The notes: generated by a model from the letters alone, not told the origin. A stretch of 49,842 nt of DNA, filler included, from Fervidicoccaceae archaeon (GCA_038734945.1; 5 parts of 5 records of this genome joined end to end with filler, not necessarily neighbours in it); one strand, 5' to 3'; counted from the first letter of the whole stretch, positions 17,959 to 49,842 are shown. A program made the numbers and translations.

Positions 17959-18107
17959 TCATCAAACGTCATCTTAATGACGCCGGATAACTCATATGGC
18001 GGATCCTGTTTAATCTCTTTATTCTCATTAACTGAAAAAATAGAAGACGGACTTATGAAACGAGACGCACCCGTGCGGGTGCTATCATTCACTTTTTGCG
18101 ATTGCAT
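17959..18107 (-). CDS. viral terminal-repeat protein (partial; copy of 44498-44809)
   Basis: MQSQKVNDSTRTGASRF nearly identical to the 103-aa ORF; TTAAATA box about 25 nt upstream of the ATG (leaderless). Confidence 0.7.
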
Positions 18108-18153
18108 GACAATAACTAGATCGTTGAGGTATTTAAGCGTTACGGTTCGCTAG
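17959..18153. repeat. inner part of a putative inverted terminal repeat; copy of 44661-44855
   Basis: 195 bp aligned without gaps, 9 mismatches by manual count; homology ends abruptly after ...GGTTCGCTAG. Confidence 0.85.
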
Positions 18154-18559
18154 GGAGAGAAGCTAACGCTTGCTTAAGTAAGTATAGTGCCTGTCCTTTT
18201 GTGTCTTTGAATTTTTTCACATTAATGTAAACGTGAACCTCATCAGGGTTATCATCATTTATTTCCACAACTACGTAACTGTAAGGTGTTCCCCACAAAA
18301 TAGCAATTCTCAAAGCATAACCATTGATAAACAGTTCTTTCACATATTCACCATTAAATGACCCTTGCGATTCCAAAAACTCATAAGCGAATTCTAGAAA
18401 AGGTCTAATCTGTCTAGCTGTTTCTTCAGAGATCGGATAGCATTGATTTGTTTCACAATCACTAGTTAAACGTGGAAGAATGCGAGAGGGTACCGCTAGA
18501 TAAATATCCTCTTTGTCATCATATGCGAGTACAAAGCCGAATGAACGATCCACTGGCAT
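18140..18559 (-). CDS. viral hypothetical protein (139 aa)
   Basis: Clean ORF with a TTTAAA box upstream; its stop lies inside the repeat. Confidence 0.7.
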   Translation of the reverse strand: MPVDRSFGFVLAYDDKEDIYLAVPSRILPRLTSDCETNQCYPISEETARQIRPFLEFAYEFLESQGSFNGEYVKELFINGYALRIAILWGTPYSYVVVEINDDNPDEVHVYINVKKFKDTKGQALYLLKQALASLPSEP

Positions 18560-19137
18560 ATCTTAGTACAATTTAAAAGAATAAGATGGTTCGAACTACG
18601 AACATTTAGAATTTATCTTCATTAACAATTACAACGCACATCAGGGAAATCAATTATCAGTTTTTGCAACGTGATTTTTCGCCTTAACGGGGTACCCCCA
18701 CCCCCCTCCTCCCCGATTTTTCGTTTGACGTGTGAATCACAAAAACGCCCTCAAAAACAACGTTTGATAAAAATTCAGTCACGTCAACTGAGTATTTACT
18801 CATCTCACTCTCTCTTTCACATTGTAACAGATCCGTGATGATTCTCGTTTTTCCGATAGATCAAACTCGCAACTGAGTCAATTGATTTACGTTAAGAGTG
18901 ACAAATTGTAATGACATGGTAACATTGATACCCTTTCAAAAAGTTAGAAGTAGATAATTACTAAGTACGAGTTTATAACTAAACAGTTGGAGACTCAAAC
19001 TAGCACAACGTGAGTTTATCCACTTGACTACGTGGTTAAACTAGTTTTTCGCACCAACAACATCCTAGCGGTCGAACTTGATAATTCAGTTCAAAGTAAG
19101 AAGGCTGAAAAATACTACTTAAGTAAAGATAACACAT

Positions 19138-19311
19138 ATGAATAACTGTTTAAAACTCGTGAGGGGTAAGAAATTTATTAAAAAATCGTTTGATTACGGA
19201 TTTTATCAACGAAACTACTATTTCACACCTGACGAGATAGTGATCGAAGATGTTAGGCACGAAGACAAAGCTGTGACTTGTGATAAAATGCGATTGACGC
19301 CACCTAAATGA
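19138..19311 (+). CDS. small viral hypothetical protein (57 aa)
   Basis: Manual translation MNNCLKLVRGKKFIKKSFDYGFYQRNYYFTPDEIVIEDVRHEDKAVTCDKMRLTPPK; below the track cutoff. Confidence 0.45.
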   Translation: MNNCLKLVRGKKFIKKSFDYGFYQRNYYFTPDEIVIEDVRHEDKAVTCDKMRLTPPK

Positions 19312-19431
19312 GTGACATGATAAGCACCGCATCCGAAATGACAAAGATTATCGTAAGAATGATCAGGACGTTAAGAAATGTAGGATGCGATACAATGTAA
19401 CTACTCTTTGACGCTAGATAATTTCTTGCAC

Positions 19432-19755
19432 TCATGTCTTAGGTTGATTTAAATCAAGTTCGTTTATCTCATAGAAGTGCCGATAATAAAGTATCATTTT
19501 TCCGCTTTTAGTATGAATAAGCCTTCTATTTATCGCCTTTATGTCATTAAATCTAATTCTATCGCTAGGTTTGACATCAAACGGTTTTGACGCTAGAACG
19601 TAGAAAATGTTGTTTTGCCTTACGTCAACCACACGGTGCAAGAAAAACTTATCACTTTTGAAAACCTGAACGTAAGGACTTTCGTAAAGCTTCTTTTCCA
19701 CTTTTACACAAAGCTTAGTTAACTCCTCGAATGTTCCAACAAAGTACGTTTTCAT
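19432..19755 (-). CDS. viral hypothetical protein (107 aa)
   Basis: ORF with typical viral composition. Confidence 0.65.
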   Translation of the reverse strand: MKTYFVGTFEELTKLCVKVEKKLYESPYVQVFKSDKFFLHRVVDVRQNNIFYVLASKPFDVKPSDRIRFNDIKAINRRLIHTKSGKMILYYRHFYEINELDLNQPKT

Positions 19756-19796
19756 GCTAATCGTAAATGATCATTAAATTAAATTCACTGAGATAG

Positions 19797-20024
19797 TCAG
19801 TTTTGAATCTTAGTCCTCGCTGATAAAACGTCTGTAGTATCTTCTCGTATGTTTTGTGATCCACATCCAAGTAAATCATAATCTAGCAACGAAAAAATAG
19901 CGTAGTTTCCCCTTGACTTTCTGTAGTAACCTTTAAGATAACTAAATCCGTGAGCTTTCATAATCTCGTCGAACTTCTTCCTAGTGAGTCTCTTAACACC
20001 TAGCTCCTTTCTGTATTTCTTCAT
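19797..20024 (-). CDS. small basic viral protein
   Basis: Likely start MKKYRKELG (ATG 20024), overlapping the end of the nuclease gene. Confidence 0.5.
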   Translation of the reverse strand: MKKYRKELGVKRLTRKKFDEIMKAHGFSYLKGYYRKSRGNYAIFSLLDYDLLGCGSQNIREDTTDVLSARTKIQN

Positions 20025-20526
20025 TATTAGGAACGCCACCCGAGAGTTTACTATTTTGGCTGAAAATAGTTTTTCTAACTGTGACGTAAGTTGAGACAAT
20101 TTTTTCCACCTCACTACTCGTTAATGGGTACAATTTTAAAATTCTTCTTGGAGTTAGCAAGTAAAGATCGTAGTACCCGCCTAGTAACCATCTATAGATC
20201 GAAAGTTGTACTCGAGCAAACTCCTTTGCGTTTTCTGATGATTTTATTTCAAATATCTCATTTTGTGACATAAGATCAACCCGTCCCTTTATTATGAAGT
20301 CATCATACTGCGCCGATACAGGAACCTCTATCTTTGCCTCTGGAATTGACTTAGCTATAATCGCTTGCACTCCCGCATGTAACCATGATCCCGCCCGTAA
20401 AATATCAGGTGGCGGTAGCGTGGTGTTCAAGTGGTAACTAACAATCTCGCTAACGTAGATAACATTTGACGGCGGTGTAAACGTTTTTGTTTCATACAAC
20501 TGATTTAATTTATTTATGATTGACAT
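19993..20526 (-). CDS. Cas4-like / RecB-family PD-(D/E)xK nuclease
   Basis: IYVSEI, GSWLH, IEVPV, IKGRVDL, IFEIKS, QLSIY: RecB-type motifs II and III plus QxxxY. Confidence 0.82.
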   Translation of the reverse strand: MSIINKLNQLYETKTFTPPSNVIYVSEIVSYHLNTTLPPPDILRAGSWLHAGVQAIIAKSIPEAKIEVPVSAQYDDFIIKGRVDLMSQNEIFEIKSSENAKEFARVQLSIYRWLLGGYYDLYLLTPRRILKLYPLTSSEVEKIVSTYVTVRKTIFSQNSKLSGGVPNNEEIQKGARC

Positions 20527-20550
20527 GATTTTAAACTACTCATCTAGATT

Positions 20551-20811
20551 TTAAAAAGCTTTTGCAAACCTGTCTAGGAATTTTCCACGAGTTAGACCGA
20601 ACCCAAACAATAGGAAAATGGAGGGTAGAATCGTAGGCGGGAAAATAAGATTAAGGATTGGTATGTTATTAGCTATCCTATTCAATATGTAAAACACAAC
20701 CGCAAACGGTATCGCTGGTGCAATTAAAATAACAATGGGAAGGTTAGCTAGGATTTTCTGCAACGAGTTCAGGCTAGTTAAGAAATTGATAATTGGAGTA
20801 GAGTTAAACAT
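20551..20811 (-). CDS. small viral membrane protein, ANLP-motif family
   Basis: Two hydrophobic segments; NSLQKILANLPIVIL resembles the motif in the 28692, 38135 and 38614 proteins. Confidence 0.6.
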   Translation of the reverse strand: MFNSTPIINFLTSLNSLQKILANLPIVILIAPAIPFAVVFYILNRIANNIPILNLIFPPTILPSIFLLFGFGLTRGKFLDRFAKAF

Positions 20812-20831
20812 GTATTAAGGCTGGTTAAATC

Positions 20832-21005
20832 ATGAGTCTGTTCTACCAAGCGCTTATCTTTACTGCTGTGTCCACGGTAGCGTACTTTCTTGCAACGAAA
20901 TCATTGAACGTACAAATTTCACTTTTGGCTATGATCTTGGGTATCAATGTCGTCAGTTTTCTTTTGACTCAAGGAATTTACAAGACTATCGTAATCAATA
21001 CGTGA
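20832..21005 (+). CDS. small two-TM viral protein (57 aa)
   Basis: Manual translation MSLFYQALIFTAVSTVAYFLATKSLNVQISLLAMILGINVVSFLLTQGIYKTIVINT; conflicts with the minus-strand ORF 20919-21113. Confidence 0.45.
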   Translation: MSLFYQALIFTAVSTVAYFLATKSLNVQISLLAMILGINVVSFLLTQGIYKTIVINT

Positions 21006-21144
21006 TAGAGCTAAAATACATGTCTCCATGATTTCAGTTTGTTTTTTCTGTGTGTAAATTTCTTTAATTAACACATACAGAGATGTTACGAGTGAGACTA
21101 ACGAGACGATCATGTATTTAACCGAGACTAAAACAGGTGACCGC

Positions 21145-21417
21145 ATGGCTACGGATATCGTAACCGTAATCGAATACTTGATAGGCGGAGCTGTCGGGAG
21201 CTTCATAATTGCCGAAATCATGAACTACTTCAACAATAGGTCGGCGGATCAGACCTTCGTTAATCTAGGTAAGGAGATGGCGGAGACCACCACGCTGGGA
21301 GTGCAAGCACTTCAAGACATATCAACCATGGCTATCTCCTCACTGGTAGGCGTCTCAGGCGTTAATGACGTAAACAATCTCGTTAAAAAGAAGGTTGAGG
21401 AACAAAAAGCTAGCTAA
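21145..21417 (+). CDS. viral membrane-anchored protein (90 aa)
   Basis: GGTGA RBS before ATG 21145; N-terminal hydrophobic helix; T-rich terminator-like tract after the stop. Confidence 0.7.
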   Translation: MATDIVTVIEYLIGGAVGSFIIAEIMNYFNNRSADQTFVNLGKEMAETTTLGVQALQDISTMAISSLVGVSGVNDVNNLVKKKVEEQKAS

Positions 21418-21448
21418 ACACTAGATCATTTTTGTTTTTTCTTAATTC

Positions 21449-21598
21449 ATGGATCTCGGGTTTATCGCTATCATTATTTCAATTCTGTCAATTTCATTTG
21501 ACATAATTTTTACAATAGAAGCGAAGAAAGCACTAGATGCTCTTTCCTTTATAGTTCAACAGAATGACGAAGATGATGAAAACCGGGCGTATATGTAA
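21449..21598 (+). CDS. small single-TM viral protein (49 aa)
   Basis: Manual translation MDLGFIAIIISILSISFDIIFTIEAKKALDALSFIVQQNDEDDENRAYM. Confidence 0.5.
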   Translation: MDLGFIAIIISILSISFDIIFTIEAKKALDALSFIVQQNDEDDENRAYM

Positions 21599-21660
21599 TG
21601 TCAAAACTTCAAATACTAAAAGAAGTAATTCGTTTTTTAAAAAATAATGCTTTGTATTTT

Positions 21661-21933
21661 TTAGTGTTTGGTGACGCTGGTGCTATTCTCCTTCTGTATC
21701 TGCTGATTAAGCATCTTCGTCAATCTCGTGAAAGTGATAACGCATCTAACTAACTCGTCGATCTGTTGACCCTTATCGAACCGTTTAACGCTTTTGGGCT
21801 TTACGGGAACGGGTGGAAGCGTTGAGTAATGAACTAGACGTCTATCTTGCTCTCGTTCTGTGTTTTCAAAACATTGATCTATGACCTCTCCTGTCGATGT
21901 ATCAATCAGAAACCCGCCGTCACACACTGTCAT
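21661..21933 (-). CDS. viral protein with a TFB N-terminal Zn-ribbon-like segment
   Basis: VCDGGFLIDTSTGEVIDQCFE resembles the crenarchaeal TFB ribbon GEYICxETGEV. Confidence 0.5.
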   Translation of the reverse strand: MTVCDGGFLIDTSTGEVIDQCFENTEREQDRRLVHYSTLPPVPVKPKSVKRFDKGQQIDELVRCVITFTRLTKMLNQQIQKENSTSVTKH

Positions 21934-22156
21934 TAGTACAACCCTCTGTTATCTTTCTAACTAGTTCTTGAACCTTTTGATTGGGATACGTTTCGATCTT
22001 TTTGATTGTATCCAGTATAAGGTCACACTCGTTACGATGAGTCAGAAGAAGGTAGCCCGCCAACAAATCCGCTACAACTGAAATTAATGCTGGTTGTTCC
22101 ATCATGTACTGTGCCAGTTCGTCTATTAGGTCATACACATCATCCGCTACTGTCAT
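21920..22156 (-). CDS. viral hypothetical protein (78 aa)
   Basis: Overlapping operon arrangement; helical acidic protein. Confidence 0.65.
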   Translation of the reverse strand: MTVADDVYDLIDELAQYMMEQPALISVVADLLAGYLLLTHRNECDLILDTIKKIETYPNQKVQELVRKITEGCTNDSV

Positions 22157-22253
22157 TAATCTCGCCTACTATTTTATCTACTATCTTTAACAATTTCTTA
22201 ACTTCTTGCAAAAGCTCGATTATGTCGTCGATCTTATCTATGTCAGATCCCAT
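22140..22253 (-). CDS. small coiled-coil viral protein (37 aa)
   Basis: Manual translation MGSDIDKIDDIIELLQEVKKLLKIVDKIVGEINDSSG; bridges two operon genes, GAGG RBS. Confidence 0.5.
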   Translation of the reverse strand: MGSDIDKIDDIIELLQEVKKLLKIVDKIVGEINDSSG

Positions 22254-23128
22254 TTTATCGCCTCAGTGACATGTTGGAACTTGAACTTTAATTCATCTGG
22301 ATTTAAGTAGTCTTTCAAATTGGAAAAGTGGTTAAGTTCGTTGTACATTTTCTTAACGTCGTGATGTTTATCCTCTAAGTTCACTAATGTGTCTACAAAG
22401 CTGTAAGGATCTACTTCGTTGTGGAAAAAATTAAGTCTAGACCTTACGTCACGATATGATGCTTTAATAGGCACACCTAGATCGTATAATTGACTGAGTA
22501 AATGAAACTCGTGAGCGTCTAGGTAGATAGCTGGTGTGTTACATGACGCTGATTCAATGAGGGGAAGATAAGGAGACTCTGAATGTGACATAGCCAACAG
22601 GTAGCGAGCCGAACAAAGGAGCTTAAAGTACTGTTCATCGGGCGGTGTACCGTATAGGTATTGCCATCGCCCGGTATGGATAACATGATAACCCAATTGC
22701 TCCGCTACATGTCCCCAGTAATGACCTTTCCTGTCATAGTCCCGCTCCGAAATGCCGGCAATGAATAAGTGACTCTGATGAGGCTGTTCAGGTAACTCGG
22801 GGACAATGTGAGGATGGTAATAAACATATTTGCGCATTATGTGATGATTCCACAAAGACGGCGTTAAGATGATTACACCCTTATCTAACATTTTCTTTAC
22901 TCTGTCCACGTTAAAATTCAATGTAGCGGTATCACATACCGCAATGTTAACCTTACCGGGATAAATTTTCATTTCCTGAATTCTGCTAAAGGTAGTATAA
23001 TAAACGTGAATGTCCGCATTAGGATTGTTCTCACTGCACTCTAGTCCTATCTGCTTACAGATCTGTAACTGTCTGTTTATCAAGTAGCGATAACTTCCCG
23101 CCTTCATCCACGTACTGAATGATATCAT
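22238..23128 (-). CDS. glycosyltransferase (GT-B fold, GT4-like)
   Basis: TPS, DRKG, and the EX7E motif SHSESPYLPLIESASCNTPAI. Confidence 0.85.
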   Translation of the reverse strand: MISFSTWMKAGSYRYLINRQLQICKQIGLECSENNPNADIHVYYTTFSRIQEMKIYPGKVNIAVCDTATLNFNVDRVKKMLDKGVIILTPSLWNHHIMRKYVYYHPHIVPELPEQPHQSHLFIAGISERDYDRKGHYWGHVAEQLGYHVIHTGRWQYLYGTPPDEQYFKLLCSARYLLAMSHSESPYLPLIESASCNTPAIYLDAHEFHLLSQLYDLGVPIKASYRDVRSRLNFFHNEVDPYSFVDTLVNLEDKHHDVKKMYNELNHFSNLKDYLNPDELKFKFQHVTEAIKWDLT

Positions 23129-23169
23129 AACATGTCATCACGTTACTAATTTATAACTCTTGCTAAATC

Positions 23170-23334
23170 ATGTCATTACTACTAGACGCTGACGTTGTTC
23201 TTCTGATGATAAATCTAATCTCTGCTCTTTACACTCCGTTATCTTCTAGATTCTCGTTGAACTTTAAGACCGTTGCACTTCTAGCTTTCATTGCTCTCGT
23301 TGATGTTGTTATCATAAAGCTAGTGGGTGCTTAA
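23170..23334 (+). CDS. small two-TM viral protein (54 aa)
   Basis: Manual translation MSLLLDADVVLLMINLISALYTPLSSRFSLNFKTVALLAFIALVDVVIIKLVGA; TTTATAA box about 20 nt upstream. Confidence 0.55.
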   Translation: MSLLLDADVVLLMINLISALYTPLSSRFSLNFKTVALLAFIALVDVVIIKLVGA

Positions 23335-23578
23335 CGTGAAAATTGACGAAGTTCTAGAACTCATAGGTAAGGCTGTGCTGTCTAGGGAAACGGTTGAAGC
23401 GAAGGCTAAGCTTTGCGATTACATCACAGTCATTAACTTTATGCAAAAGAATTATCAATACTGTAGTTACGATGATGATTGTAAAACGTTTTCATGTAGA
23501 TTAGATAATTTCATCATAATGGCACATTACGATCGTGATAAGCTAAAGATAAGCGCACACTTCACGGTAAAAGTTTAA
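23327..23578 (+). CDS. viral hypothetical protein (83 aa)
   Basis: ORF in the plus-strand cluster. Confidence 0.6.
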   Translation: MLNVKIDEVLELIGKAVLSRETVEAKAKLCDYITVINFMQKNYQYCSYDDDCKTFSCRLDNFIIMAHYDRDKLKISAHFTVKV

Positions 23579-23603
23579 ATACCTCTTTTATCCATTTTCA
23601 TTT

Positions 23604-23996
23604 ATGGCAAAACAAATAGTCGTTTCGGATTCGGCGGAGCTTGTTTTTAAGCTCTTCGAAAGATACGAAGGTAAGAAGTGGGTGGACTATTTTGACAAAA
23701 CCATAAACATCGATGACTATCTTAAGTATTGGGAAGATACAACTATCTTTAGCACCGTGTTATTTAGACATCTATCTGGGCTTGAGCCTCTAGATTCTAT
23801 AGATAAGATCGCTGACTTAGTCACGCTAGTAGTTATCAATGACGATCCTGTAAATTCGTTATGGGACTGTGAACGCTTTGGTATTAACGTACCGTTTTAC
23901 ATCATGATGAGGGAACACTTGCTATCAATTGTTAAAAAGTTTAAGAATGCCAAAGTTGTGACTTACACTGAATATCTTAAGGGGGACTTTGCATGA
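23604..23996 (+). CDS. viral hypothetical protein (130 aa)
   Basis: TTTAAATA box upstream; ATGA coupling to the next gene. Confidence 0.72.
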   Translation: MAKQIVVSDSAELVFKLFERYEGKKWVDYFDKTINIDDYLKYWEDTTIFSTVLFRHLSGLEPLDSIDKIADLVTLVVINDDPVNSLWDCERFGINVPFYIMMREHLLSIVKKFKNAKVVTYTEYLKGDFA

Positions 23997-24412
23997 TAGT
24001 AGAAGCGATTAATCCTAACAGTCCTAAACGTGTTATCTACGAAGGCATGCCCGCCACGGTGAAAAAATATCTTGACTCTAAAAAGATCAAATACGAGCGT
24101 GTACCCAACGGGTTTGATCAAACTGTGTTATTCTTTGAGGGTAACCCCCAGGTTGTATGGGGTGACTTGTTCGTGAGAAGTTACTACAACCCTAAGTTTC
24201 TAAAATACGTTGCTAGGTTCTACCCTTCATTTGATGCTGTGTACTTGATTATGCCCCATAGCGCCAATGAGATCTTAGATGAACAGGCTAGTATGGATTT
24301 GCCACTTCAGGCATTCATTAGCATTTACAAATATGTAGATAGGGCAACTAAGGCTTACTTAAACACTCATTTTAACGCATATCCCCTGTTAGTGTCGGAA
24401 GAAGACCATTAG
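23993..24412 (+). CDS. viral hypothetical protein (139 aa)
   Basis: Coupled ORF with GGGGG RBS. Confidence 0.72.
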   Translation: MIVEAINPNSPKRVIYEGMPATVKKYLDSKKIKYERVPNGFDQTVLFFEGNPQVVWGDLFVRSYYNPKFLKYVARFYPSFDAVYLIMPHSANEILDEQASMDLPLQAFISIYKYVDRATKAYLNTHFNAYPLLVSEEDH

Positions 24413-24447
24413 AAAAGTTTTTTAATCGCTTTAACTACTTCTTAATT

Positions 24448-24747
24448 ATGTCCCAAAAACCAATAGTTTCCATAAACACAAACGAAAAGGCATTTTTTGG
24501 TTGGGTTTTGTCTCAACTTGAGAACCTTCCCGAAGTGGGAGAAGACGAGTTTAGAAACAAAACTAACCACTATTTTATAGACGTAAAGATTAGAGAGCCA
24601 CAAGATAAGATTATTATCGAACGATCTGGAAACTATCTAGTAGCATTCATCTATTCTACCTGTGACTCGTTCGTGTGCGCAAAGATCGTTTTGCCTAAAA
24701 TGATGAAAAAAATAATTGAGGAAATAATGGAATGGGAAAAGGACTAA
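24448..24747 (+). CDS. viral hypothetical protein, paralog of 46624-46914
   Basis: FFGWVLSQLENLPEVGEDE vs FFDWVIKMINEIPDAGQKE. Confidence 0.72.
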   Translation: MSQKPIVSINTNEKAFFGWVLSQLENLPEVGEDEFRNKTNHYFIDVKIREPQDKIIIERSGNYLVAFIYSTCDSFVCAKIVLPKMMKKIIEEIMEWEKD

Positions 24748-25214
24748 AGTAAGTCATCGTCTTTTTTATCATCCTGTTTATCTTCTTGTTCGTTATTGTT
24801 CATTAACATATCTACGTTAGTTGACTTGTTAGTTAGTAATGAGACTAGTGGCAATAAGTTATTTATGAGTCTCGATACACTAGGATCATTAAGCAATCTC
24901 AGGATGGTATCAACAACGTCCTGTTTTGTGCCAAACAAGTTGCTCATCAAGTTGGCGGTTGTCTTAAACGTCATCGCCTGTCTGTTCATGAATTCAGTTT
25001 GGATTGCAAACCAACTAGGTAGTTTCATCGCTAGCAAGTCCATTAACGCCAACACTTGCTGACCGTTGACGTAACGCAAGTTGTACGTTTGTATCATTTC
25101 CCTAGCTAACGAGATTATGACATCCATTTCTTTCAGGTTTTTCTCCTTCGCAAGACTAGTTATGAACTGGATTTCCTCAGGTGTAAAGTACTTCTCAAGT
25201 TGCATTTTGATCAT
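24744..25214 (-). CDS. viral protein, possible N-terminal ribbon-helix-helix DNA-binding domain
   Basis: YFTPEEIQFITSLAKEKNLKEMDVIISLAREMI fits the RHH helix pattern; acidic tail. Confidence 0.6.
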   Translation of the reverse strand: MIKMQLEKYFTPEEIQFITSLAKEKNLKEMDVIISLAREMIQTYNLRYVNGQQVLALMDLLAMKLPSWFAIQTEFMNRQAMTFKTTANLMSNLFGTKQDVVDTILRLLNDPSVSRLINNLLPLVSLLTNKSTNVDMLMNNNEQEDKQDDKKDDDLL

Positions 25215-25536
25215 CTAGTGCCTTTTTGATGAATTCATCTAATGTCATCTCTGGGTGTAGCCTCTTTACTGCTTTATCCAAAAACTTAACCAAGTACATT
25301 AGATCAACCTCCTCAAACTGATTTAGAACGTTAGGCGGTTTAGACTGTGAGATGATACCCACTAATAAGCCATATGAATTATCATCAAATTTAGCGGTCA
25401 TTGCGAACTCTGTGATGTTATTTTCCAAAAACGAGAGATTAATACCCTTAAGTTGGGGCATCGAAAGGAAGGGTTTTAACTTGTTAAGTGTATCCTTCGA
25501 GACTAACGCATCCTTCATAACATCAAGTAGTGACAA
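25195..25536 (-). CDS. viral hypothetical protein (113 aa)
   Basis: Divergent from the structural operon, sharing an AT-rich promoter region (TATTTAAAA). Confidence 0.68.
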   Translation of the reverse strand: MSLLDVMKDALVSKDTLNKLKPFLSMPQLKGINLSFLENNITEFAMTAKFDDNSYGLLVGIISQSKPPNVLNQFEEVDLMYLVKFLDKAVKRLHPEMTLDEFIKKALDDQNAT

Positions 25537-25582
25537 GTAACTAAAAGTGTGCTACACTATACTATTTAAAATGAAATAAGTT

Positions 25583-41003: not shown

Positions 41004-41014
41004 TCATAACACGT

Positions 41015-43343: not shown

Positions 43344-43352
43344 TGATAGAAC

Positions 43353-43607
43353 ATGAAGGAGCTAATCAGATACCTGTTATTTATGCATAAATATCTCAAA
43401 CTAGATTACATTAATGTGGTAGTATCACGTGACGGCGAAGTAGTTCATCTTGAAATAAAGAACGATAACGATATGACTGTTACGGGTTATCAATGCGAAC
43501 CGTCCATGGATGGCAATTTCAAGAATTGCACAGAGATCAAAAACCTGGACGAGATAGTGACTGAAGCTATCAACGATATGGTCAGAATCGAGTGGAAAAA
43601 CTCTTAA
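43353..43607 (+). CDS. viral hypothetical protein (84 aa)
   Basis: Operon position. Confidence 0.65.
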   Translation: MKELIRYLLFMHKYLKLDYINVVVSRDGEVVHLEIKNDNDMTVTGYQCEPSMDGNFKNCTEIKNLDEIVTEAINDMVRIEWKNS

Positions 43608-43632
43608 ATATTCGTGATGTTTATCTAGTTTT

Positions 43633-44015
43633 ATGAAACTAATTATCGTAGAAGGAAGCAACGGAGTGGGTAAGACCACTCTTTTAAAGAAAATAAGAGA
43701 TCGTTATGATGTTTTTTACGTGCATTTTCCCCTAGTCTATTATCGTAAGATGCCACCCGTTGCCTATCTGGGTGAAATGCTGTCATTTTTGAGGGGGCAA
43801 CTTGGTATCTTTGTGGACTTAAATGCCCGTCCCATCTTGGTAGATCGTTTCTTCCTGTCTACTATGGTGTATCAGGGAAAAGACATTAACTTCGTTTCAC
43901 CGGTACTAGAAGAGTTACAAAAACATGAGTATTACCTATTTGTGCTAAAACCAGACGAAAACTACAAAAGAGTAATGACGCACTTTGAAAACATAAAGGC
44001 TTATGATGATCCTAA
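43633..44015 (+). CDS. tmk: thymidylate kinase-like protein, partial
   Basis: IIVEGSNGVGKTT P-loop, HFP, LVDRFFLSTMVYQ (DRxxxSxxxYQ motif). Confidence 0.85.
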
Positions 44016-44115
44016 NNNNNNNNNNNNNNNNNNNNNNNNNNNNNNNNNNNNNNNNNNNNTTAATTAATTAANNNNNNNNNNNNNNNNNNNNNNNNNNNNN
44101 NNNNNNNNNNNNNNN
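44016..44115. other. artificial contig spacer
   Basis: N-run, TTAATTAATTAA, N-run. Confidence 0.98.
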
Positions 44116-44144
44116 CATCGTCCATTCTTCTTCCAGCTAGAATT

Positions 44145-44450
44145 GAAGCCCCCCCCGACGGCATCCACCGCCACCCCCCATCGCCTCCGGCGACCACCGC
44201 CCAACCACGTAACCTACGTGTTTGGACGGCGACCGCCTTCACAGGCGCACGGGAGATGACCGTGATGCCGTCAAGGTGCTTACGATCCAGCGCAAGCACC
44301 AGGGGACGTGGGTTAGGGCATCATTTGGACGTCAGAGCCCACTGGCGCCACCGGGATGGACGCCCATCGCGCCCCTCCCCGTCCAACTAGGGCGTAAAGG
44401 GTTCTTCATACGCTCTAAGGCGTATTGAGGCGCACCCTCTCGCCCAATAC
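44145..44450 (-). ncRNA. candidate structured viral non-coding RNA
   Basis: GC island in an AT-rich genome with about ten stems, a GUGA tetraloop and a G-U-completed 10-bp stem on the minus strand; TTTTTATT box at 44475-44468. Confidence 0.5.
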
Positions 44451-44497
44451 ACTATAAGTTAAAAACAAATAAAAACCTTTTGCTCCGTTACACGTGG

Positions 44498-44809
44498 CTA
44501 GAATAACTTACCCTGTGTCTTCACCACGGCATTAGACTTGATAACTTCAAAGTATAACTTCTTTCTAATTTGCACCGGCTCGGCAACAACACAGTACAGG
44601 GTTCGATTAATCACTTTACCGCACACCAACTGAGGAATCGTTGGCTTTACTGACACGTCATCATCAAACGTTAGCTTAATGACGCCGGATAGCTCATACG
44701 GCGGTGTCTGTTGAATCTCTTTATTCTCATTAACTGAAAAAATAGAAGACGGACTTACGAAACGAGACGCACCCGTGCGGGTGCTATCATTCACTTTTTG
44801 CGATTGCAT
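44498..44809 (-). CDS. viral terminal-repeat protein (103 aa)
   Basis: Second copy at 17959-18107; leaderless, with a TTAAATA box. Confidence 0.72.
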   Translation of the reverse strand: MQSQKVNDSTRTGASRFVSPSSIFSVNENKEIQQTPPYELSGVIKLTFDDDVSVKPTIPQLVCGKVINRTLYCVVAEPVQIRKKLYFEVIKSNAVVKTQGKLF

Positions 44810-44834
44810 GACAATAACTAGATCGTTGAGGTAT

Positions 44835-45236
44835 TTAAGCGTTACGGTTCGCTAGTTCTTCCTTAAGCTCCTCTAGGTACTCCTTTAGTGCTTCTTTGGC
44901 TTTGGATTTTATTCCTACTGCCGTCTCAGACCTTACTATAATCGTGACAACGCCGATAGGAGCCTGGCAATAGCCTACACATTCAACATCTATCTCAACG
45001 TCATCACTGTAACCTTTGTCAAAAATCAGCACAATTTTACGGTACTCTTCGCTATCTTGATAAACATACGTGACCTGACTATACCTACTCTGATGAGGCG
45101 AATAAGCTCTAGCTATGGTTTCAAAAAACCTGGCTCCAGACATAGAAGAAACAACAGAAGATGACTTCCTAACTTTTGATATGTTTTTAATAGCCCACTC
45201 GATCAACTCGATTTTATTCTCCAGCTTTGATGACAT
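44835..45236 (-). CDS. viral hypothetical protein (133 aa)
   Basis: Its stop lies within the repeat boundary. Confidence 0.7.
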   Translation of the reverse strand: MSSKLENKIELIEWAIKNISKVRKSSSVVSSMSGARFFETIARAYSPHQSRYSQVTYVYQDSEEYRKIVLIFDKGYSDDVEIDVECVGYCQAPIGVVTIIVRSETAVGIKSKAKEALKEYLEELKEELANRNA

Positions 45237-45272
45237 GAGTATCTAATTAGCAAAACTAAAAAACAATGTGAC

Positions 45273-46061
45273 TTATGCGTTTTTGCACTGTCCATGAATC
45301 AAATTATAGACGTCAATGACTCCATAACAGCTATTGATTGCTAGCTTAGCTCTCTCCATATCGTCATATTCTAACGCATTCAGCTTGCCCATGACTTTAA
45401 ACATGTTTACGATCTGCATGTACATATCTATTAGTATCTGAATCTCGCTTAGCTTCTGTAATTGTTCGTGTTGGTCTAGATGTTCGTTTTGAATGAAATC
45501 ATCTACCAGTCTGGTCATTTCAGATTGTATCTTAACTAATTCATCTACTAGATGCTTCACATTGTAATCTTCTAATTTCTTGCTTGTTATCACCTTAACA
45601 GCGTATTCTGACGAAGACTTAACGTATTGTAGATAGTACTTCATTCCGTTTGCATTCTTTTTTAGATTCTCATCATCGATCTTAATCATCGTTGTATTCA
45701 TGTACTTTAGAATGTATTGCTCTAGTTCTTCTAATGGCTTTTGTAATTTCTCAATGCGATAACCGAGTATGTTATGCACTCTAACCTTAGCCTTGAAACT
45801 ATTCAGCTTAATCAGTAATGTTAGATAATTAAAATCTTCAGCAACGTAATTATGATGATAAATAAACCCGTTTAGTTGTACAATTAAGTCAGCAACATCT
45901 CTGTTTAAATCAGCCAAATTGAATAGATCCCATTCTCTAGATAGCAAGTACAGGGCGTTTAGCCCCAACTGTGTCACCCTTAACTCTTCAGTCACAGCCT
46001 TCTGAAAGTTTATCAACGCATCAAGAATATCTAATTTTTCTTGTACGTGTTTAATTGACAT
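45273..46061 (-). CDS. all-alpha viral protein (262 aa); terminal-protein candidate
   Basis: GGTGA RBS; amphipathic helices throughout; same strand as and downstream of the polymerase. Confidence 0.7.
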   Translation of the reverse strand: MSIKHVQEKLDILDALINFQKAVTEELRVTQLGLNALYLLSREWDLFNLADLNRDVADLIVQLNGFIYHHNYVAEDFNYLTLLIKLNSFKAKVRVHNILGYRIEKLQKPLEELEQYILKYMNTTMIKIDDENLKKNANGMKYYLQYVKSSSEYAVKVITSKKLEDYNVKHLVDELVKIQSEMTRLVDDFIQNEHLDQHEQLQKLSEIQILIDMYMQIVNMFKVMGKLNALEYDDMERAKLAINSCYGVIDVYNLIHGQCKNA

Positions 46062-46079
46062 TTAACTCACCATAAGCAT

Positions 46080-46631
46080 TTAGTTGTCAGAGGTTAATAA
46101 CCTTTTCGGTAAACTGACATGCCTGAAAATTTCATATGTTTTTGACATTATTTGAAATGTTGACACACATTCAGCAACCCAGTTAGCTCTTTCCATATCG
46201 TACTCATAAATAGACGATAGTTTTACCAAGTCCTCATCATTCAACGGTTCAACTAGTATCATGAAAGTGGGATAATTGTCATTTATCACCGAGTCTAACA
46301 CCTTAACGTATCTAGCAATGTAACGTTTCCAGTTTGGTAGCGAACACAAAAGTGAAATAGGCGAACCGTCCACTATCGTACCGCCGGGTATTTCTTTAAG
46401 GAAGTCATGAAACTCTCTATCAATTTCGTTTTTAGGACTATAACGTACCAGTCTCATGTTAAGTGCGTCAGATACTATTTTCGATATCTGACTCTTGCCA
46501 GCCATTGGTATACCGTCAATTACCACCTTCATCTGATTAACTGATATCTTCCACTGTTTGCCAATTTCATTAACTAGATTGATAACATCCCCGGCTTTGA
46601 ACTCAACGCTAAAGTTATAATTATCAATCAC
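46080..46631 (-). CDS. P-loop nucleoside/nucleotide kinase-like protein
   Basis: VVIDGIPMAGKS Walker A and TIVDGSPIS (degenerate DR motif). Confidence 0.65.
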   Translation of the reverse strand: MIDNYNFSVEFKAGDVINLVNEIGKQWKISVNQMKVVIDGIPMAGKSQISKIVSDALNMRLVRYSPKNEIDREFHDFLKEIPGGTIVDGSPISLLCSLPNWKRYIARYVKVLDSVINDNYPTFMILVEPLNDEDLVKLSSIYEYDMERANWVAECVSTFQIMSKTYEIFRHVSLPKRLLTSDN

Positions 46632-46914
46632 TTAACATCACCTTCTGAATTTGTGCTATAATCTCATCTCTACACTCACTAATGCTTTCACATGATGTTA
46701 CTATCTCTATCACCTTCCTCTTTTCGTTAGTTACTGTGATGGTATTGTGACTCTCCTTTAACTTCAAGATCAGCATGTCATTATTCTCCAGTACCATAAC
46801 CTCTTTTTGACCAGCATCTGGAATTTCATTTATCATTTTGATGACCCAGTCAAAAAACTTGGTTCCAACAGAGTAGTCTATCTTGTTTTCAAAATTCATG
46901 AATGAACACCCCAC
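46624..46914 (-). CDS. viral hypothetical protein, paralog of 24448-24747
   Basis: Shared FFxWVxxxxxxxPxxG motif; real start probably MNFENK. Confidence 0.7.
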   Translation of the reverse strand: MGCSFMNFENKIDYSVGTKFFDWVIKMINEIPDAGQKEVMVLENNDMLILKLKESHNTITVTNEKRKVIEIVTSCESISECRDEIIAQIQKVMLSD

Positions 46915-46984
46915 TCAAAAATGAACATGAAAAAAACCACAAATCTTAACTTTTCGCTTTGTCTTGAATTAGAACATTGCATAT

Positions 46985-47266
46985 CTAGTTATTGCTTTGA
47001 CTGCTATTTAAATATTTCTGTTTGAACTCCTCAGTGATGTCTTTCATGGTTTTTGAATCATAAACTACAAACTTAGTCTCTGGGTTATCTCTAGCAAACT
47101 CGATTATCTCATCCTTCGTGACTGGTACTAATACAGTTATAACATCGTCAATCATGATCTCCTCGCCGTCAGAGCTTATCTCCTGTATGTCTACGTCTTG
47201 TACCTCAAGCATGTAGGGGTACTGGTGATGATCCCTTACTTCATACTTTAGATCTTCCAACAACAT
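46985..47266 (-). CDS. small acidic viral protein coupled to the polymerase
   Basis: TAATG overlap with the polymerase stop; about 22 D/E versus 9 K/R in 93 aa. Confidence 0.72.
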   Translation of the reverse strand: MLLEDLKYEVRDHHQYPYMLEVQDVDIQEISSDGEEIMIDDVITVLVPVTKDEIIEFARDNPETKFVVYDSKTMKDITEEFKQKYLNSSQSNN

Positions 47267-49077
47267 TAGACTGGTTCACCTATCTTTTTCTCATCACCAG
47301 AGTATTTAAGTCTTGCTTTAACCAGGACTTTCTTAGGTACAGTGATGCTAACATTGTATGCTAAACGTGATTTGATAGCCTTGAAGTTTTGAAACAGGTA
47401 CATTTTGAGAGGATCAGGATCATAGTGTATTTCCACATCTTGGTCTTTTTTTACACCTTTAGCAACAATGTTTTTCTTCCCGATCGCCACATTTCCGTCT
47501 CTGCGATAATTAACCGGTACCCACTCCCCAGGATCTTGTGTGAAAAAGTAGAGTTTTTTGCCTAAATGGTAAATGTTACCCTCTTTTTCTATCTTCAACT
47601 GTCCCAAACCATCACCTAGTGTCTTAAACTTCAGTTTGGTATCTAATATCTTAACTTCGCTATACTCTCTTATCTCTCGAGTAAGGTGAAGTGAATCCGT
47701 GTCAGTGTACTGTAACCCTTCCTTATTCTGTTTCATTAACTGATAAAGGTATAACCTAGCGTATGCGGTGACGTAACTGGCGATGGCTACGGAGTATCGA
47801 GGTGTTAACTCTTCCTTTGTGTAGACAATTTCATCTATCCGTGTGTATACTTTACCGTTAAATAGAGTGCGTCCTTCTCTCTTGATTATGTTAAGTATTT
47901 CCGGATCCTTCACTATCATAGCTCTTGCTTTATGCAAACCAAACTTACCGTAGGCGCTATTGAGTATCATTTTAGCTACTGTCCTAAGCGTTTGCCCTTC
48001 TACTCCACCTTTCTTTTCACCTTGCTTTTTCATTTCGTAGTATTTATCAATAAACTCGGTAAACAGATAGTCAGATTTAAACCATTTACTACTAATAAAC
48101 TGTATCTTGCATTCCTCATAACGTAACGCTTGTACTTCCGGAGTAGTTAAGACAGCTTCATTTTCTAATACTTGGGTAAGAATGTTCTCACCGTTAAATC
48201 TTGTCTTAGTGACAACTGGCATTAAGTCAGTATCGCATTTGAATCTGACACGGTGGAATCCTAGATAACCACGCTTGATAGCTTGATTGAATGACATGTC
48301 ATCTTTTACTGGCATAGTAGGATATCTAAAGGAGCGCATGACCGTAGGGTACAGTGAATTTACGTCATAAACCTTTTGTCTTTCACTGAATGATGAAATC
48401 ACTAGTGGATCTACACGTCCGCCTCGATAGCTTTCAATTATCATAGGATCATTTATTTCAGTTATTACGCCCGCATATTTGTCAGGATCCATAAGCGCTT
48501 TCTTTAATCCCTGAGCTTCTGGCATCATTTTTAAGAGTATTCGGAATGAAATGCTAGGTAGAGTTGTACCATGTGTTTCAATTCTATTAAAAAATCTAGT
48601 TAAAACTATGTGAAGCGCCCTAGCGTCATTTCTAGCAAGCTCCTCGCCGTGTTCATTAACGTAATTATTCCACTCTTCAGGGTTAGTCTCTATCTTATCG
48701 TAGTTTATTTGCGCCTCTTCCTTGTAATTTAACTCTGGTGCAAACGTCTTAATAGCGTTCTTTAGCGAAGTTGTCAGTATAGGCATACTATCCCTTACCC
48801 ACGTACCACCCGCAAAGTTAATGGAGAATGGAGCATCAAAGCTAGCGTCCTCAATCATGTCAGCAAACATTGATATCCTCAGAAGCGACATATCGTACTT
48901 GGCGTTATGGATAAAGATGGTAGACTTAGCGTTTATCATGTACTCTAACACTTTTTTCTGATCCGTAAAACACGTCTCTGACGTTCCGTCACTGAAACAT
49001 CCCACAGCAAAAACGTGACGAATTTCATCACCTTCTCGTTTAAACTTTGCCTCACTATCATACGTAAGAAATTTCAT
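47266..49077 (-). CDS. polB: protein-primed family B DNA polymerase
   Basis: ExoI YDSE, ExoII HNAKYD, SYRGG, YDVNSLYP, KMILNSAYGKFG, YTDTDS, KKLY; TPR1-like and TPR2-like insertions; 603 aa. Confidence 0.95.
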   Translation of the reverse strand: MKFLTYDSEAKFKREGDEIRHVFAVGCFSDGTSETCFTDQKKVLEYMINAKSTIFIHNAKYDMSLLRISMFADMIEDASFDAPFSINFAGGTWVRDSMPILTTSLKNAIKTFAPELNYKEEAQINYDKIETNPEEWNNYVNEHGEELARNDARALHIVLTRFFNRIETHGTTLPSISFRILLKMMPEAQGLKKALMDPDKYAGVITEINDPMIIESYRGGRVDPLVISSFSERQKVYDVNSLYPTVMRSFRYPTMPVKDDMSFNQAIKRGYLGFHRVRFKCDTDLMPVVTKTRFNGENILTQVLENEAVLTTPEVQALRYEECKIQFISSKWFKSDYLFTEFIDKYYEMKKQGEKKGGVEGQTLRTVAKMILNSAYGKFGLHKARAMIVKDPEILNIIKREGRTLFNGKVYTRIDEIVYTKEELTPRYSVAIASYVTAYARLYLYQLMKQNKEGLQYTDTDSLHLTREIREYSEVKILDTKLKFKTLGDGLGQLKIEKEGNIYHLGKKLYFFTQDPGEWVPVNYRRDGNVAIGKKNIVAKGVKKDQDVEIHYDPDPLKMYLFQNFKAIKSRLAYNVSITVPKKVLVKARLKYSGDEKKIGEPV

Positions 49078-49109
49078 ACTTAATTGTTTCTAATGCGGGG
49101 ATTAAAAGC

Positions 49110-49814
49110 TTGTGTATCCGTGATATCATCATAAATAACGGTGAGGCTTATGCTACATGCAATGACGATGAGAAAAGGATAGTCATGTGTGCTTTCGAGA
49201 AGTACAAACGAATACTTGAGGAAGCGAGAGTCAAGCGGGCACTTAAGGAAAAATTCAACACTACAGAAAAGGAGAAGATAGCACTAGCAGAGTGCTTTGC
49301 CGATCACCCTAACCGTGAGTACTATGTTACCGTACCGTCCCTATTGCTTAGAGACAATGATGATATGTGTTTTTACTCATTTCAGCAACCTCTAGCATTG
49401 GGTAACGCCGAGTGCAAGTTTGTGAAAGTTGGCTATCCTATTCTAGAAGGAGACTTTAACGTTCACGATAGCACGTACGTTTTAGCAGGCGAGTTAGGGG
49501 TTATGGACTTTTTGGCACGGACTAAGGGTATAATGTGCGATGACAAGTGTAAAGAAGCGGGTTATCTAGTTTTGCCTATCGCAACGTTGCTTTTTTACGA
49601 AGCGTTTGGCACAACGTTATTGCCTAAGTTCAGCATAAGAAAAGTTATAATTGACGGACAAGAAAAGCCATTTAGAGATTTCGCAGTTAAAAAAGTTGAA
49701 GACGCTATAGCAAAACTTGGCGTACATGATGAAAAATTAGACTACGCTCTTGGCAAGGTTAAAAGTGCTAGTTTTCTCAAGAGTTTTATCTTGTCTGTTA
49801 TTCCATCGATCTAG
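49110..49814 (+). CDS. viral hypothetical protein (234 aa, Cys-containing), divergent from the polymerase
   Basis: Long ORF with a TTG start; no motif recognised. Confidence 0.7.
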   Translation: MCIRDIIINNGEAYATCNDDEKRIVMCAFEKYKRILEEARVKRALKEKFNTTEKEKIALAECFADHPNREYYVTVPSLLLRDNDDMCFYSFQQPLALGNAECKFVKVGYPILEGDFNVHDSTYVLAGELGVMDFLARTKGIMCDDKCKEAGYLVLPIATLLFYEAFGTTLLPKFSIRKVIIDGQEKPFRDFAVKKVEDAIAKLGVHDEKLDYALGKVKSASFLKSFILSVIPSI

Positions 49815-49842
49815 AATGTAAGAGATAGCATTTTCTAGCGCA

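Follow-up and report, generated by a model that had tools for sequence, protein, structure and literature searches.

Three contigs binned with a Desulfurococcales-like archaeon raise the question of whether they are pieces of one virus and, if so, what its relatives and its host are. The window is a stretch of 49,842 nt, in which N spacers divide contigs B (10964 nt), C (29023-37996), D (5919 nt) and E (5727 nt), the bounds being exact. A sequence-only reading, which gave the lengths of B, D and E exactly, had proposed that these three are one near-complete, linear, ampullavirus-like virus of about 23 kb, and had set contig C aside as not viral. Contig C is indeed host DNA, both by gene content (IS200/IS605 transposases, archaellins and an M20 peptidase) and by its overlaps with host contigs C2 and C3, exact over 127 nt at their ends. 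For B, D and E the joins, CRISPR spacers and homologues of 19 of the 45 genes agree with the proposal. They form one linear virus, divergent, ampullavirus-like and mis-binned, of which about 22.3 of 22.9 kb is assembled. The best explanation of the whole, to which we give a probability of roughly 0.8, is a single linear virus of about 22.9 kb, a deeply divergent relative of the Ampullaviridae, mis-binned, with a Metallosphaera-type host past or present. Its features are collected in Table 1.

Table 1. Features of the viral contigs (positions counted from the first letter of the window)
Feature	Position	Strand	Evidence or remark
Contig B, left arm of virus	17959-28922	+	joined molecule takes 17959-28702
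Inner 195 nt of left inverted terminal repeat	17959-18153	.	match to E 546-740
Cas4-like PD-(D/E)xK nuclease, ABV ORF163 homologue, one cysteine only	19993-20526	-	phrog_1706 E 2.2e-9; TIGR00372 E 9.7e-7 (below its cut-off)
Pyramid-forming protein homologue (STIV C92 / SIRV2 P98 family), 101 aa, N-terminal hydrophobic helix	21112-21417	+	phrog_8367 E 1.3e-13
Glycosyltransferase, ABV ORF315 homologue, ~30% identity	22238-23128	-	phrog_4356 E 1.1e-26
Protospacer of spacer 137, G030 array 1	24443-24480	+	spacer match
ABV ORF150b homologue, 43-51% identity	24744-25214	-	ABV match
ABV ORF107b homologue	25195-25536	-	ABV match
Conserved ampullavirus block, with small ORFs without match	25583-28679	+	ABV homology
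ORF167-like	25583-25990	+	conserved block
ORF174-like	26212-26718	+	conserved block
ORF85/91a-like	26715-26978	+	conserved block
ORF72-like	27332-27517	+	conserved block
ORF116-like, weak	27525-27788	+	conserved block
ORF61-like	28204-28368	+	conserved block
B-type allele of ORF166-like gene, cut by contig end	28692-28922	+	D-type allele used in joined molecule
Contig D, virus middle	38097-44015	+	opens with the 49 nt of B 28654-28702
Variable two-gene cassette: ORF166-like (160 aa) and ORF346-like (420 aa), common N-terminal domain	38135-39867	+	homology to ABV
676-aa ORF, polyproline linker, Ser/Thr/Asn/Gln-rich tail	41313-43343	+	no known family
Protospacer in 676-aa ORF (contig D)	41550-41589		spacer match
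Protospacer of spacer 55, G030 array 2	43547-43590	+	spacer match
Thymidylate kinase, 5' part, 127 and two-thirds codons, runs off end of D	43633-44015	+	PF02223 E 1.2e-8
Contig E, right arm of virus	44116-49842	-	read as reverse complement
34-nt tip of E	44116-44149	.	33/34 nt equal HAD-hydrolase gene of the bin's own chromosome (contig C2)
G+C-rich (0.62-0.64) non-coding terminal region	44140-44450	-	very stable minus-strand fold
Protospacer in G+C-rich terminal region (contig E)	44409-44446		spacer match
103-aa ORF borne by terminal repeat, analogue of ABV ORF81a/b	44498-44809	-	repeat-carried ORF
Right-arm copy of 195-nt repeat	44661-44855	.	match to B 1-195
Protein-primed family B polymerase (PolB)	47266-49077	-	PF03175 E 6.8e-34; phrog_1907 E 6.4e-60
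Thymidylate kinase, 3' part, last 34 and one-third codons and stop	49737-49842	-	in frame directly after 44015

The proposed order, B followed by D and the reverse complement of E, passed independent tests at both joins and a CRISPR-spacer test. The molecule would be a linear dsDNA of about 22.9 kb comprising B (17959-28702), D (38146-44015) and E (49842-44116); the joined sequence is 22,341 nt long. D and reverse-complemented E abut exactly and a thymidylate kinase gene spans the junction, the ORF passing from 44015 to 49842 on the minus strand of E with zero gap and zero overlap to give 162 aa in total (156 aa in the Acidianus bottle-shaped virus, ABV). The 127-aa N-terminal part has five homologues in the database, all of them complete proteins of 160-162 aa in which ...YDDPN/ALENAIS... 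reads through the junction (slash), and the translated end of E equals the C-terminus of protein P0121 at 33 of 34 residues. Public runs were compared as assembled contigs and on D only. Variant-strain contigs from runs X1 and X15 extend beyond 44009 by 30 nt collinear with D 44010-44015 and E 49842-49819; 21 of these 30 nt agree (hand count) and the peptide NALENAI is unchanged.

The end of B is homologous to the start of D, as had been noticed: B 28654-28921 and D 38097-38364 are 78.8% identical over 269 columns, D opening with 49 nt that are the same as in B and being about 75% alike over the remainder. A second genome, G047, includes a related virus, whose 3091-nt contig C169 matches on one strand B 7977-10958 at 85.1% and then D 1-375 at 86.9% (contig numbering). 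The one ORF at the end of C169 shares 92.9% identity with the D-type protein and 80.5% with the B-type. The tail of B and the head of D are therefore alleles of one gene from two strains, and not an assembly overlap or a tandem duplication. Contigs from three public runs begin at 38116, one 31-mer ahead of the point where B and D diverge. The joined sequence is a composite of co-occurring strains. Assembly would have failed at points of divergence between a pair of co-occurring strains, namely the kinase gene and the ORF166/ORF346 cassette, and also at the terminal repeat. The cassette probably encodes proteins of the virion surface.

There is a single copy of each hallmark gene across B, D and E. 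Gene content is otherwise non-redundant, as claimed, with no further similarity among the three at E<=1e-3 beyond the repeat, the B/D overlap and two paralogue pairs. One pair, 28204/40008, has 35% identity (E 6e-9) and the other, 24448/46624, is weak (23% identity, E 1.6e-5 in a 45-protein database). By tetranucleotide composition B, D and E lie 0.011-0.021 from one another and 0.035-0.042 from the host mean, and 45 host pieces of 6 kb reach a distance of 0.026 at most.

B and E were thought to start with the same repeat in the same orientation. The repeat is real (195 nt, 95.4%, both copies in one orientation as the contigs stand), and it opens B; in E it lies internally, at 546-740. The similarity stops abruptly at B195/E740. 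Because the two copies are inverted in the joined molecule they constitute an inverted terminal repeat, and the internal position in E means that some 0.5 kb of repeat is missing from B on the left side. The right-arm repeat presumably continues to a terminus at about 44150, which would give the inverted repeat a length of 195 bp or more, probably near 700 bp. The claim of a linear genome with inverted ends is consistent with this arrangement, from which we infer the linearity, the outer 0.5 kb of repeat and the true termini.

The terminal repeat bears a small ORF, as in ABV, and the left repeat holds the initial 49 codons (18107 to 17959, minus strand) of a second copy of this 103-aa ORF, cut by the contig end. 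The G+C-rich terminal region has a predicted minus-strand fold of -182 kcal/mol (z -8.9), with 21 G-U pairs on the minus strand versus 3 on the plus strand, and no Rfam match. Both this virus and ABV have a G+C-rich non-coding island at the polymerase end, although here it is about 300 nt long and located at the terminus. The island of ABV, at about 600-750, shows no sequence similarity to it. Ampullaviruses have a putative non-coding RNA close to the end that bears the polymerase, and the region here may be a candidate counterpart.

Ampullaviridae have linear dsDNA genomes of about 23 kb with inverted terminal repeats (ICTV profile, PMC5882107), which agrees with the form described above. PolB, glycosyltransferase, thymidylate kinase and Cas4-like nuclease, all claimed to be present, each have a profile match; the latter three, which are conserved in all ampullavirus genomes, also have direct ABV gene matches, and family-specific orphan genes accompany them. 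With tblastn, 14 of the 45 ORFs match ABV genomes; profiles made from ABV-like genomes match 19. The other 26, including every gene of E except PolB, lack an ampullavirus homologue. Ampullaviruses also encode ribbon-helix-helix and winged-helix DNA-binding proteins, for which Pfam and NCBIfam (the latter on 17 ORFs) give no match here; relatives of the ABV ORF61a/b proteins lie at 28204-28368 and 40008-40193. The ORF167/ORF174/ORF85/91a ... ORF166/ORF346 block, which also includes ORF72, is collinear with ABV at 30-50% identity. A 168-aa protein matches only ABV, ABV2 and ABV3 (six records) among 50,697 phage records, with 43-44% identity across 99-100% of its length. The relationship that had been proposed is borne out by the 19 genes and this collinear block of orphans.

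In size the genome (about 22.9 kb) is within the range of ABV, ABV2 and ABV3 (Bottigliavirus, 22.6-28.5 kb), and as in ABV a protein-primed PolB reads outward at one end. It differs in that protein identity is only 24-54% and gene order is rearranged overall: Cas4 is not adjacent to PolB, the two being at opposite ends, PolB lies downstream of the structural block, and the kinase is convergent with the polymerase module. From its genes we would place the virus as a deeply divergent relative of the Acidianus bottle-shaped viruses, which are rare viruses of archaea living in hot springs. The bottle-shaped, enveloped virion with a nucleoprotein cone that marks the family would be, for this virus, a prediction from sequence. 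It retains from ampullaviruses the orphan-gene block, presumably morphogenetic, together with the glycosyltransferase, thymidylate kinase and Cas4-like nuclease.

The polymerase gene suggests that replication would proceed by protein priming from the termini with the virus's own enzyme. Its nearest named relative is the PolB of Sulfolobus ellipsoid virus 1 (SEV1), with 29% identity over nearly the whole length (E 4.5e-36, large database) versus 24% to that of ABV. A PolB phylogeny had been proposed as a check; in the best tree the protein is sister to SEV1 (SH-aLRT 95), the ABV clade being outside on a long branch, although an AU test does not reject a clade with ABV (p 0.18). PolB is probably of a different lineage from that of ABV, and the replication module occupies the opposite map end. 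A foreign PolB combined with orphan proteins lacking ampullavirus homologues had been named as grounds for abandoning the sequence-only reading; the PolB is arguably foreign, and the orphan homologues are present. SEV1 is described as having a linear genome near 23 kb in size, with repeats at its ends and egress through pyramids (PMC10791045). Membership of the Ovaliviridae would imply gene content in common with SEV1 beyond the polymerase, and within a 12.6-kb SEV1 locus PolB alone of the 45 ORFs has a match; the other half of SEV1 was searched with the pyramid protein only, which has no match in the whole SEV1 record.

The pyramid-forming protein homologue resembles the family known from rudiviruses and turriviruses in its profile match, its size class (about 10 kDa, about 100 aa) and its N-terminal hydrophobic helix, judged by eye; it differs in being found in an ampullavirus-like genome. 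By tblastn it matches the 'putative pyramid forming protein' of SSRV1 and a protein of STIV1 (34-36% identity, E 1e-6 to 2e-6, 60% of the query). None of the 34 small ABV and ABV3 proteins tested matches this family. ABV is described as non-lytic, whereas here the homologue suggests lytic release, and cells may be left via virus-associated pyramids made of the C92/P98-type protein. Release without lysis and an Acidianus host, neither of which is indicated here, are traits of one cultured species and not necessarily of the family.

It is possible, although we hold it only tentatively, that the virus is a mosaic of three families, in which an ampullavirus morphogenetic block is combined with an SEV1-type polymerase module and a seven-fold-type pyramid protein otherwise found in rudiviruses and turriviruses, and that this is a Metallosphaera virus with lytic pyramid egress and a structured RNA in its terminal repeat, some 300 nt long and directed towards the genome end. 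It would then have no precedent among ampullavirus-type viruses, either in its Metallosphaera host or in lytic pyramid egress, and the RNA would be a larger counterpart of the proposed packaging RNA of ABV.

A less probable reading accepts one genome and places its lineage outside the strict Ampullaviridae, as a new family-level group having one gene block in common with ampullaviruses and maybe another virion form. Core proteins only 30-50% identical to those of ABV, the different PolB lineage, the pyramid protein and the rearranged gene order all favour it. So does the ORF174-like protein, which forms its own 50% cluster among 1.84 billion representatives, seven other clusters being at 35-43% identity (37-40% over matched stretches). 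The collinear block and the presence of all four annotated enzymes of the family argue against it, as do the uniform distances to ABV, ABV2, ABV3 and seven metagenomic relatives, which are those of a deep branch of the same group.

CRISPR spacers link the three contigs to one another and to a host. In a complete genome (G030) with arrays of 188 and 93 spacers, spacer 136 of array 1 matches E (2 mismatches in 38), spacer 137 matches B (25-nt exact core, 7 mismatches in 38) and spacer 139 matches D (2 mismatches in 40); spacer 55 of array 2 also matches D (7 mismatches in 44). On host contigs A and C no match is longer than 14 nt. Three of four ORFs beside a G030 array (Cas1, Csa1 and Cas4) are letter-for-letter identical to NCBI/UniRef proteins of Metallosphaera cuprina Ar-4, the fourth being absent from the collection. 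This suggests that Metallosphaera, or something closely related to it, is or was the host, as opposed to Acidianus for ABV; the spacers show past exposure of the lineage, not the present host. The virus had been described as hidden in an archaeal bin, and its contigs are in the bin, but they are mis-binned; the spacers point to Metallosphaera and not to the binned organism.

The spacers also bear on a two-element reading, in which B plus D would be an ampullavirus and E part of something unrelated that occurs alongside it and has a protein-primed polymerase, the joins being shared-gene artefacts. Although E has no ampullavirus homologue apart from a PolB nearest to that of SEV1, this is very improbable: the D/E boundary falls exactly at the split in the kinase gene and is spanned by the five full-length homologues, neighbouring spacers in one array match E, B and D, G047 carries an E-like contig (C184, 68-77% identity) beside its B/D-like one, and B plus D would be left without a polymerase.

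Least probable is that the binned organism carries the virus as an integrated provirus or casposon-like element, a reading which the host match of the E tip would favour; no integrase or Cas1 is found among the 45 ORFs (Pfam and PHROGs; NCBIfam on 17 ORFs), the match is just 34 nt at a contig tip with the HAD-hydrolase gene intact in C2, composition is far from that of the host, PolB occurs in none of 40 relatives of the bin, and a simple repeat scan finds no CRISPR array in the bin. A casposon would carry Cas1 beside its family B polymerase and sit integrated in a host genome, and the ORF searches just named find no Cas1. Under the single-virus reading these 34 nt are probably chimeric sequence attached to the physical terminus of the viral DNA. 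Public contigs carry in-frame indels relative to the 676-aa ORF.

The sequence-only reading had placed contigs B, D and E in one linear virus, in the order B, D and the reverse complement of E. This reassembly is supported by a kinase gene split between contigs, by a contig of a related genome and by CRISPR spacers. When every contig was compared with every other by blastn, two matches in all were found among B, D and E. The end of B (10696–10963) matches the start of D (1–268) at 78.8% identity, at the coordinates first reported; B and D are identical over the first 49 nt of D and about 75% alike over the remainder of the match. B 1–195 matches E 546–740 at 95.4% identity in the same orientation, and the match stops dead at B195/E740. 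This repeat was rightly described as opening B, but it is internal to E and does not form its start. Both pairs of cross-contig paralogues that had been pointed out exist, one of the two being weak.

The junction between D and E lies within the kinase gene. The kinase open reading frame starts at 43633 and, with 127 and two-thirds codons read, leaves D at 44015. Its missing third base opens the reverse complement of E, followed by 34 more kinase codons and a stop at 49737. The joined frame encodes 162 amino acids and its alignment to the kinase of Acidianus bottle-shaped virus 2 (ABV2) spans the junction. Searching with the 127-residue part retrieved five proteins of 160–162 amino acids at 88–99% identity; all five full-length homologues read YDDPN-ALENAI across the junction, and the translated end of E is identical to one of them (P0121) at 33 of 34 positions. 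In two runs, public contigs of a variant strain continue for 30 nt past 44009, collinear with the last six bases of D and the end of E. Allowing up to three mismatches, the window contains no match to this loose end, whose likeness to the end of E is visible at the codon level only. The split frame, its homologues and the variant contigs together show that the ends of D and E abut exactly.

The junction between B and D is of a different kind. B was searched against 325 genomes of the bin's order, and a contig of one of them (G047 C169) aligns at 85% to B 7977–10958 and at 87% to D 1–375, the two alignments overlapping and lying on one strand. It holds a single ORF166-like gene there, whose product shares 93% identity with the D-type protein and 81% with the B-type, and immediately upstream of this D-type gene is B-like sequence. 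The collinearity with both contigs and the single gene show that the tail of B and the head of D are alleles of one locus. Contigs of three public runs begin at 38116, one 31-mer ahead of the point where B and D diverge, which is the pattern expected of a de Bruijn graph fork. An E-like contig is present in G047 as well.

CRISPR spacers from a complete 1.84-Mb genome (G030), with 188 spacers between 189 repeats in its array 1, match all three contigs (see table). That three of four consecutive spacers in array 1 match these contigs is strong independent evidence for B, D and E being one virus, which the G030 lineage has met. The same spacers match host contigs A and C over 14 nt at most.

Contigs of the window and protospacers of G030 spacers
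Feature	Contig	Coordinates	Match
Contig A	A	1-17858	
Contig B	B	17959-28922	
Contig C	C	29023-37996	
Contig D	D	38097-44015	
Contig E	E	44116-49842	
Spacer 136, array 1	E	44409-44446	2 mismatches in 38
Spacer 137, array 1	B	24443-24480	25-nt exact core, 7 mismatches in 38
Spacer 139, array 1	D	41550-41589	2 mismatches in 40
Spacer 55, second array (93 spacers)	D	43547-43590	7 mismatches in 44

Two weaker matches, of spacers 127 and 106, both fall in the glycosyltransferase gene. Spacer 106 (L124, G030:C1:984000-1003000) matches 19 of 20 nt of the glycosyltransferase gene of the window virus and 25 of 28 of that of ABV2, which hints at exposure to several ampullaviruses. Protospacers are preceded by TCN in four of six cases and by CCN in one of six, which we take to be Sulfolobales PAMs. 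Four open reading frames beside array 1 were looked up: three (Cas1, Csa1 and Cas4) are letter-for-letter proteins named Metallosphaera cuprina Ar-4, and the fourth is absent from the protein collection. Matches to B and E in two other genomes (G288 and G301) lie outside repeat arrays. A Cas4 identical to that of M. cuprina and a Csa1 from the 90%-identity cluster of its Csa1 (P0156 and P0158) are filed under a Zestosphaera sp. metagenome-assembled genome (MAG) as well, the Csa1 record being on a 3.9-kb contig; here, too, Sulfolobaceae-type DNA seems to have been binned with a Desulfurococcales genome.

The bin itself measures 1.34 Mb in nine contigs, five of which make up the window, with a completeness of 99.95% and a contamination of 0.21%. 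The G+C content of B, D and E is 39–40%, against 42–45% for its large contigs. In overall composition the three lie near one another and beyond the range of the host pieces, and the family B DNA polymerase (PolB) was found in none of 40 relatives of the bin (0/40). B, D and E are therefore viral contigs mis-binned in this genome. A simple repeat scan of the bin found no CRISPR array. Contig C had been held to be no part of the virus and this is borne out, since it carries host genes (IS200/IS605 transposases, two archaellins, a DUF2208 protein and an M20 peptidase) and it overlaps the ends of the bin's contigs C2 and C3 by exactly 127 nt. One archaellin has a mate named Desulfurococcales archaeon in its 90% cluster. 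The archaellin genes adjoin an IS200/IS605 pair (29231–30951) of TnpA and a TnpB with a Cas12f-like TNB domain. Contig C shares about 1.8 kb at 83% identity with the end of C2, the probable reason for the break of the host assembly there. Contig A contains a diverged direct repeat (12314–12819 and 13151–13653, 67% over 517 nt) with closer copies on C2 (81–93%), and its first 3 kb has a strong T-over-A skew.

In the joined order the first 195 nt of B and E 546–740 are inverted at opposite ends, and these form an inverted terminal repeat. The repeat carries a 103-residue open reading frame, as the ABV repeat carries ORF81a/b; its outer 545 nt are missing from B. E 35–330 is 62–64% G+C and non-coding by eye, in a virus of 39% G+C; ABV has a G+C-rich island at about 600–750, at the polymerase end. 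The protospacer of spacer 136 falls in this terminal region (44140–44450, about 300 nt), so at least that part is viral. The minus strand folds far better than shuffled sequences (−182 kcal/mol, z −8.9, 21 G-U pairs), the plus strand giving −137 kcal/mol and three G-U pairs. This predicted asymmetry is suggestive of a transcript directed towards the terminus, and the minus strand is a candidate structured RNA, which matched no Rfam family. A putative packaging RNA is mentioned in the ICTV profile (PMC5882107); a literature search on an ABV packaging RNA gave nothing useful. The outermost 34 nt of E (44116–44149) match a HAD-family hydrolase gene of the bin (C2:237515–237548) at 33 of 34 nt, and past 44149 the sequence switches abruptly to G+C-rich viral DNA. 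E 1–34 could be an integration junction, but is more probably a chimeric tip at a natural end of the DNA.

The assignment to ampullavirus-like viruses proposed from sequence is supported by several sets of genes. PolB (PF03175) and thymidylate kinase are the only two of 45 called open reading frames to pass the Pfam cut-offs; matches in PHROGs extend the list by a glycosyltransferase, a Cas4-like protein, a pyramid-forming protein and several families without known function. A 168-residue protein (26212–26718) matches six of 50,697 records, all from ABV, ABV2 or ABV3, at 43–44% identity over the full length. Matches in the three ABV genomes were found by tblastn for 14 of 45 frames, and profiles from 45 gene clusters of ABV-like genomes matched 19 of 45 (13 on B, five on D, one on E). 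ABV gene order is kept in the block ORF167-ORF174-ORF85/91a ... ORF166-ORF346.

The ORF174-like protein is 38–40% identical to its counterpart in each of seven metagenomic ampullavirus-like contigs. An exhaustive search of 1.84 billion protein representatives (E≤1e-10) gave eight clusters, one containing the window protein and seven at 35–43% identity to it (37–40% over matched stretches). Such even, low identities and so few clusters show that the virus forms its own deep branch within a very small family. Neither single-protein scans of IMG/VR with PolB and the 168-residue protein nor a scan of GTDB contigs with PolB alone found a relative. Profile scans of IMG/VR returned the three ABV genomes only, and elsewhere distant PolBs only (23–31% identity), with the GTDB ones coming from bacterial records. 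Structure models of the ORF174-like (pLDDT 68) and ORF167-like (pLDDT 60) proteins are all-helical and have no fold match (best Foldseek E 1.6; best VIA Z 5.6 and 5.1, in the chance helical-bundle range); these models speak neither for nor against a link to rudivirus capsid proteins.

B, D and E contain no tRNA genes, and Rfam gave a sub-threshold snoRNA match only. The 3' end of the joined kinase overlaps that of a convergent 234-residue frame (49110–49814, TTG start) by 78 nt (49737–49814), and one of these gene calls may be in error. In a MAG from G030's own family, one stretch (L107, G289:C270:4612-4794) is 69% identical to the ORF150b-like gene of B; this may be another ampullavirus-like contig.

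The polymerase has different affinities. The nearest proteins (98%, 77%, 71% and 71% identity) come from short contigs, of which two were binned as Saccharolobus sp. and Micrarchaeaceae, and the nearest named virus is Sulfolobus ellipsoid virus 1 (SEV1, Ovaliviridae; 29%). A quick maximum-likelihood tree was made from 47 PolBs, a sample biased towards the query (the window's, three from ABV and the 43 top matches of at least 500 residues). PolB had been counted as an ampullavirus trait; in the best tree the window's clade groups with SEV1 (SH-aLRT 95) and ABV falls outside on a branch of 1.83, but a clade of the window's group with ABV was not rejected by the AU test (p 0.18). No other frame matches in the half-genome of SEV1 searched.

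A further difference from ABV concerns virus release. The ICTV profile calls ABV release non-lytic (PMC5882107), and a 2024 review lists the pyramid-protein family for rudiviruses and STIV in sections that leave ampullaviruses unmentioned (PMC10791045). The window virus carries a homologue, a 101-residue protein (21112–21417) that matches phrog_8367 (E 1.3e-13) and the SSRV1 and STIV1 proteins. It has no match in ABV genomes or metagenomic relatives, and none of 34 small ABV and ABV3 proteins (0/34) matches the family.

One isolate, two metagenomic genomes and a few contigs are all that is known of the Ampullaviridae. The virus adds to them a deeply branching ampullavirus-like lineage, set apart by its polymerase lineage, a pyramid-egress gene, a rearranged map and a link to Metallosphaera; literature outside subscription journals on ampullaviruses, and on Metallosphaera with Ampullaviridae, contained no description of such a virus. 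A fourth, near-complete, deep-branching genome separates the stable core of the family from exchangeable parts: polymerase, egress gene and gene order. The likely host range is widened to Metallosphaera, and a family said to be non-lytic gains a testable egress mechanism. The three contigs also illustrate how viral DNA can be mis-binned into a 99.95%-complete genome of an unrelated archaeon.

Multiple strains of the virus circulate. Contig D is present at half or more of sampled words in 18 rows among 24 listed runs, and any part of it in 20 rows under ten study codes, one of which may be the source. Public contigs were mapped on D only. In run X17, D 38295–39680 is uncovered and 39871–44015 covered, and a contig passes from the shared 5' part into B-type sequence. 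This hints at a B-type cassette; the coverage hole by itself proves nothing. Public contigs also carry a second kinase allele (43749–44009) with dozens of mostly third-position changes. The 676-residue open reading frame, which has no relative in Pfam, PHROGs, PDB or Atlas, shows in-frame indels in its low-complexity tail in public contigs (43100–43154; 6 nt lost, 24 nt gained).
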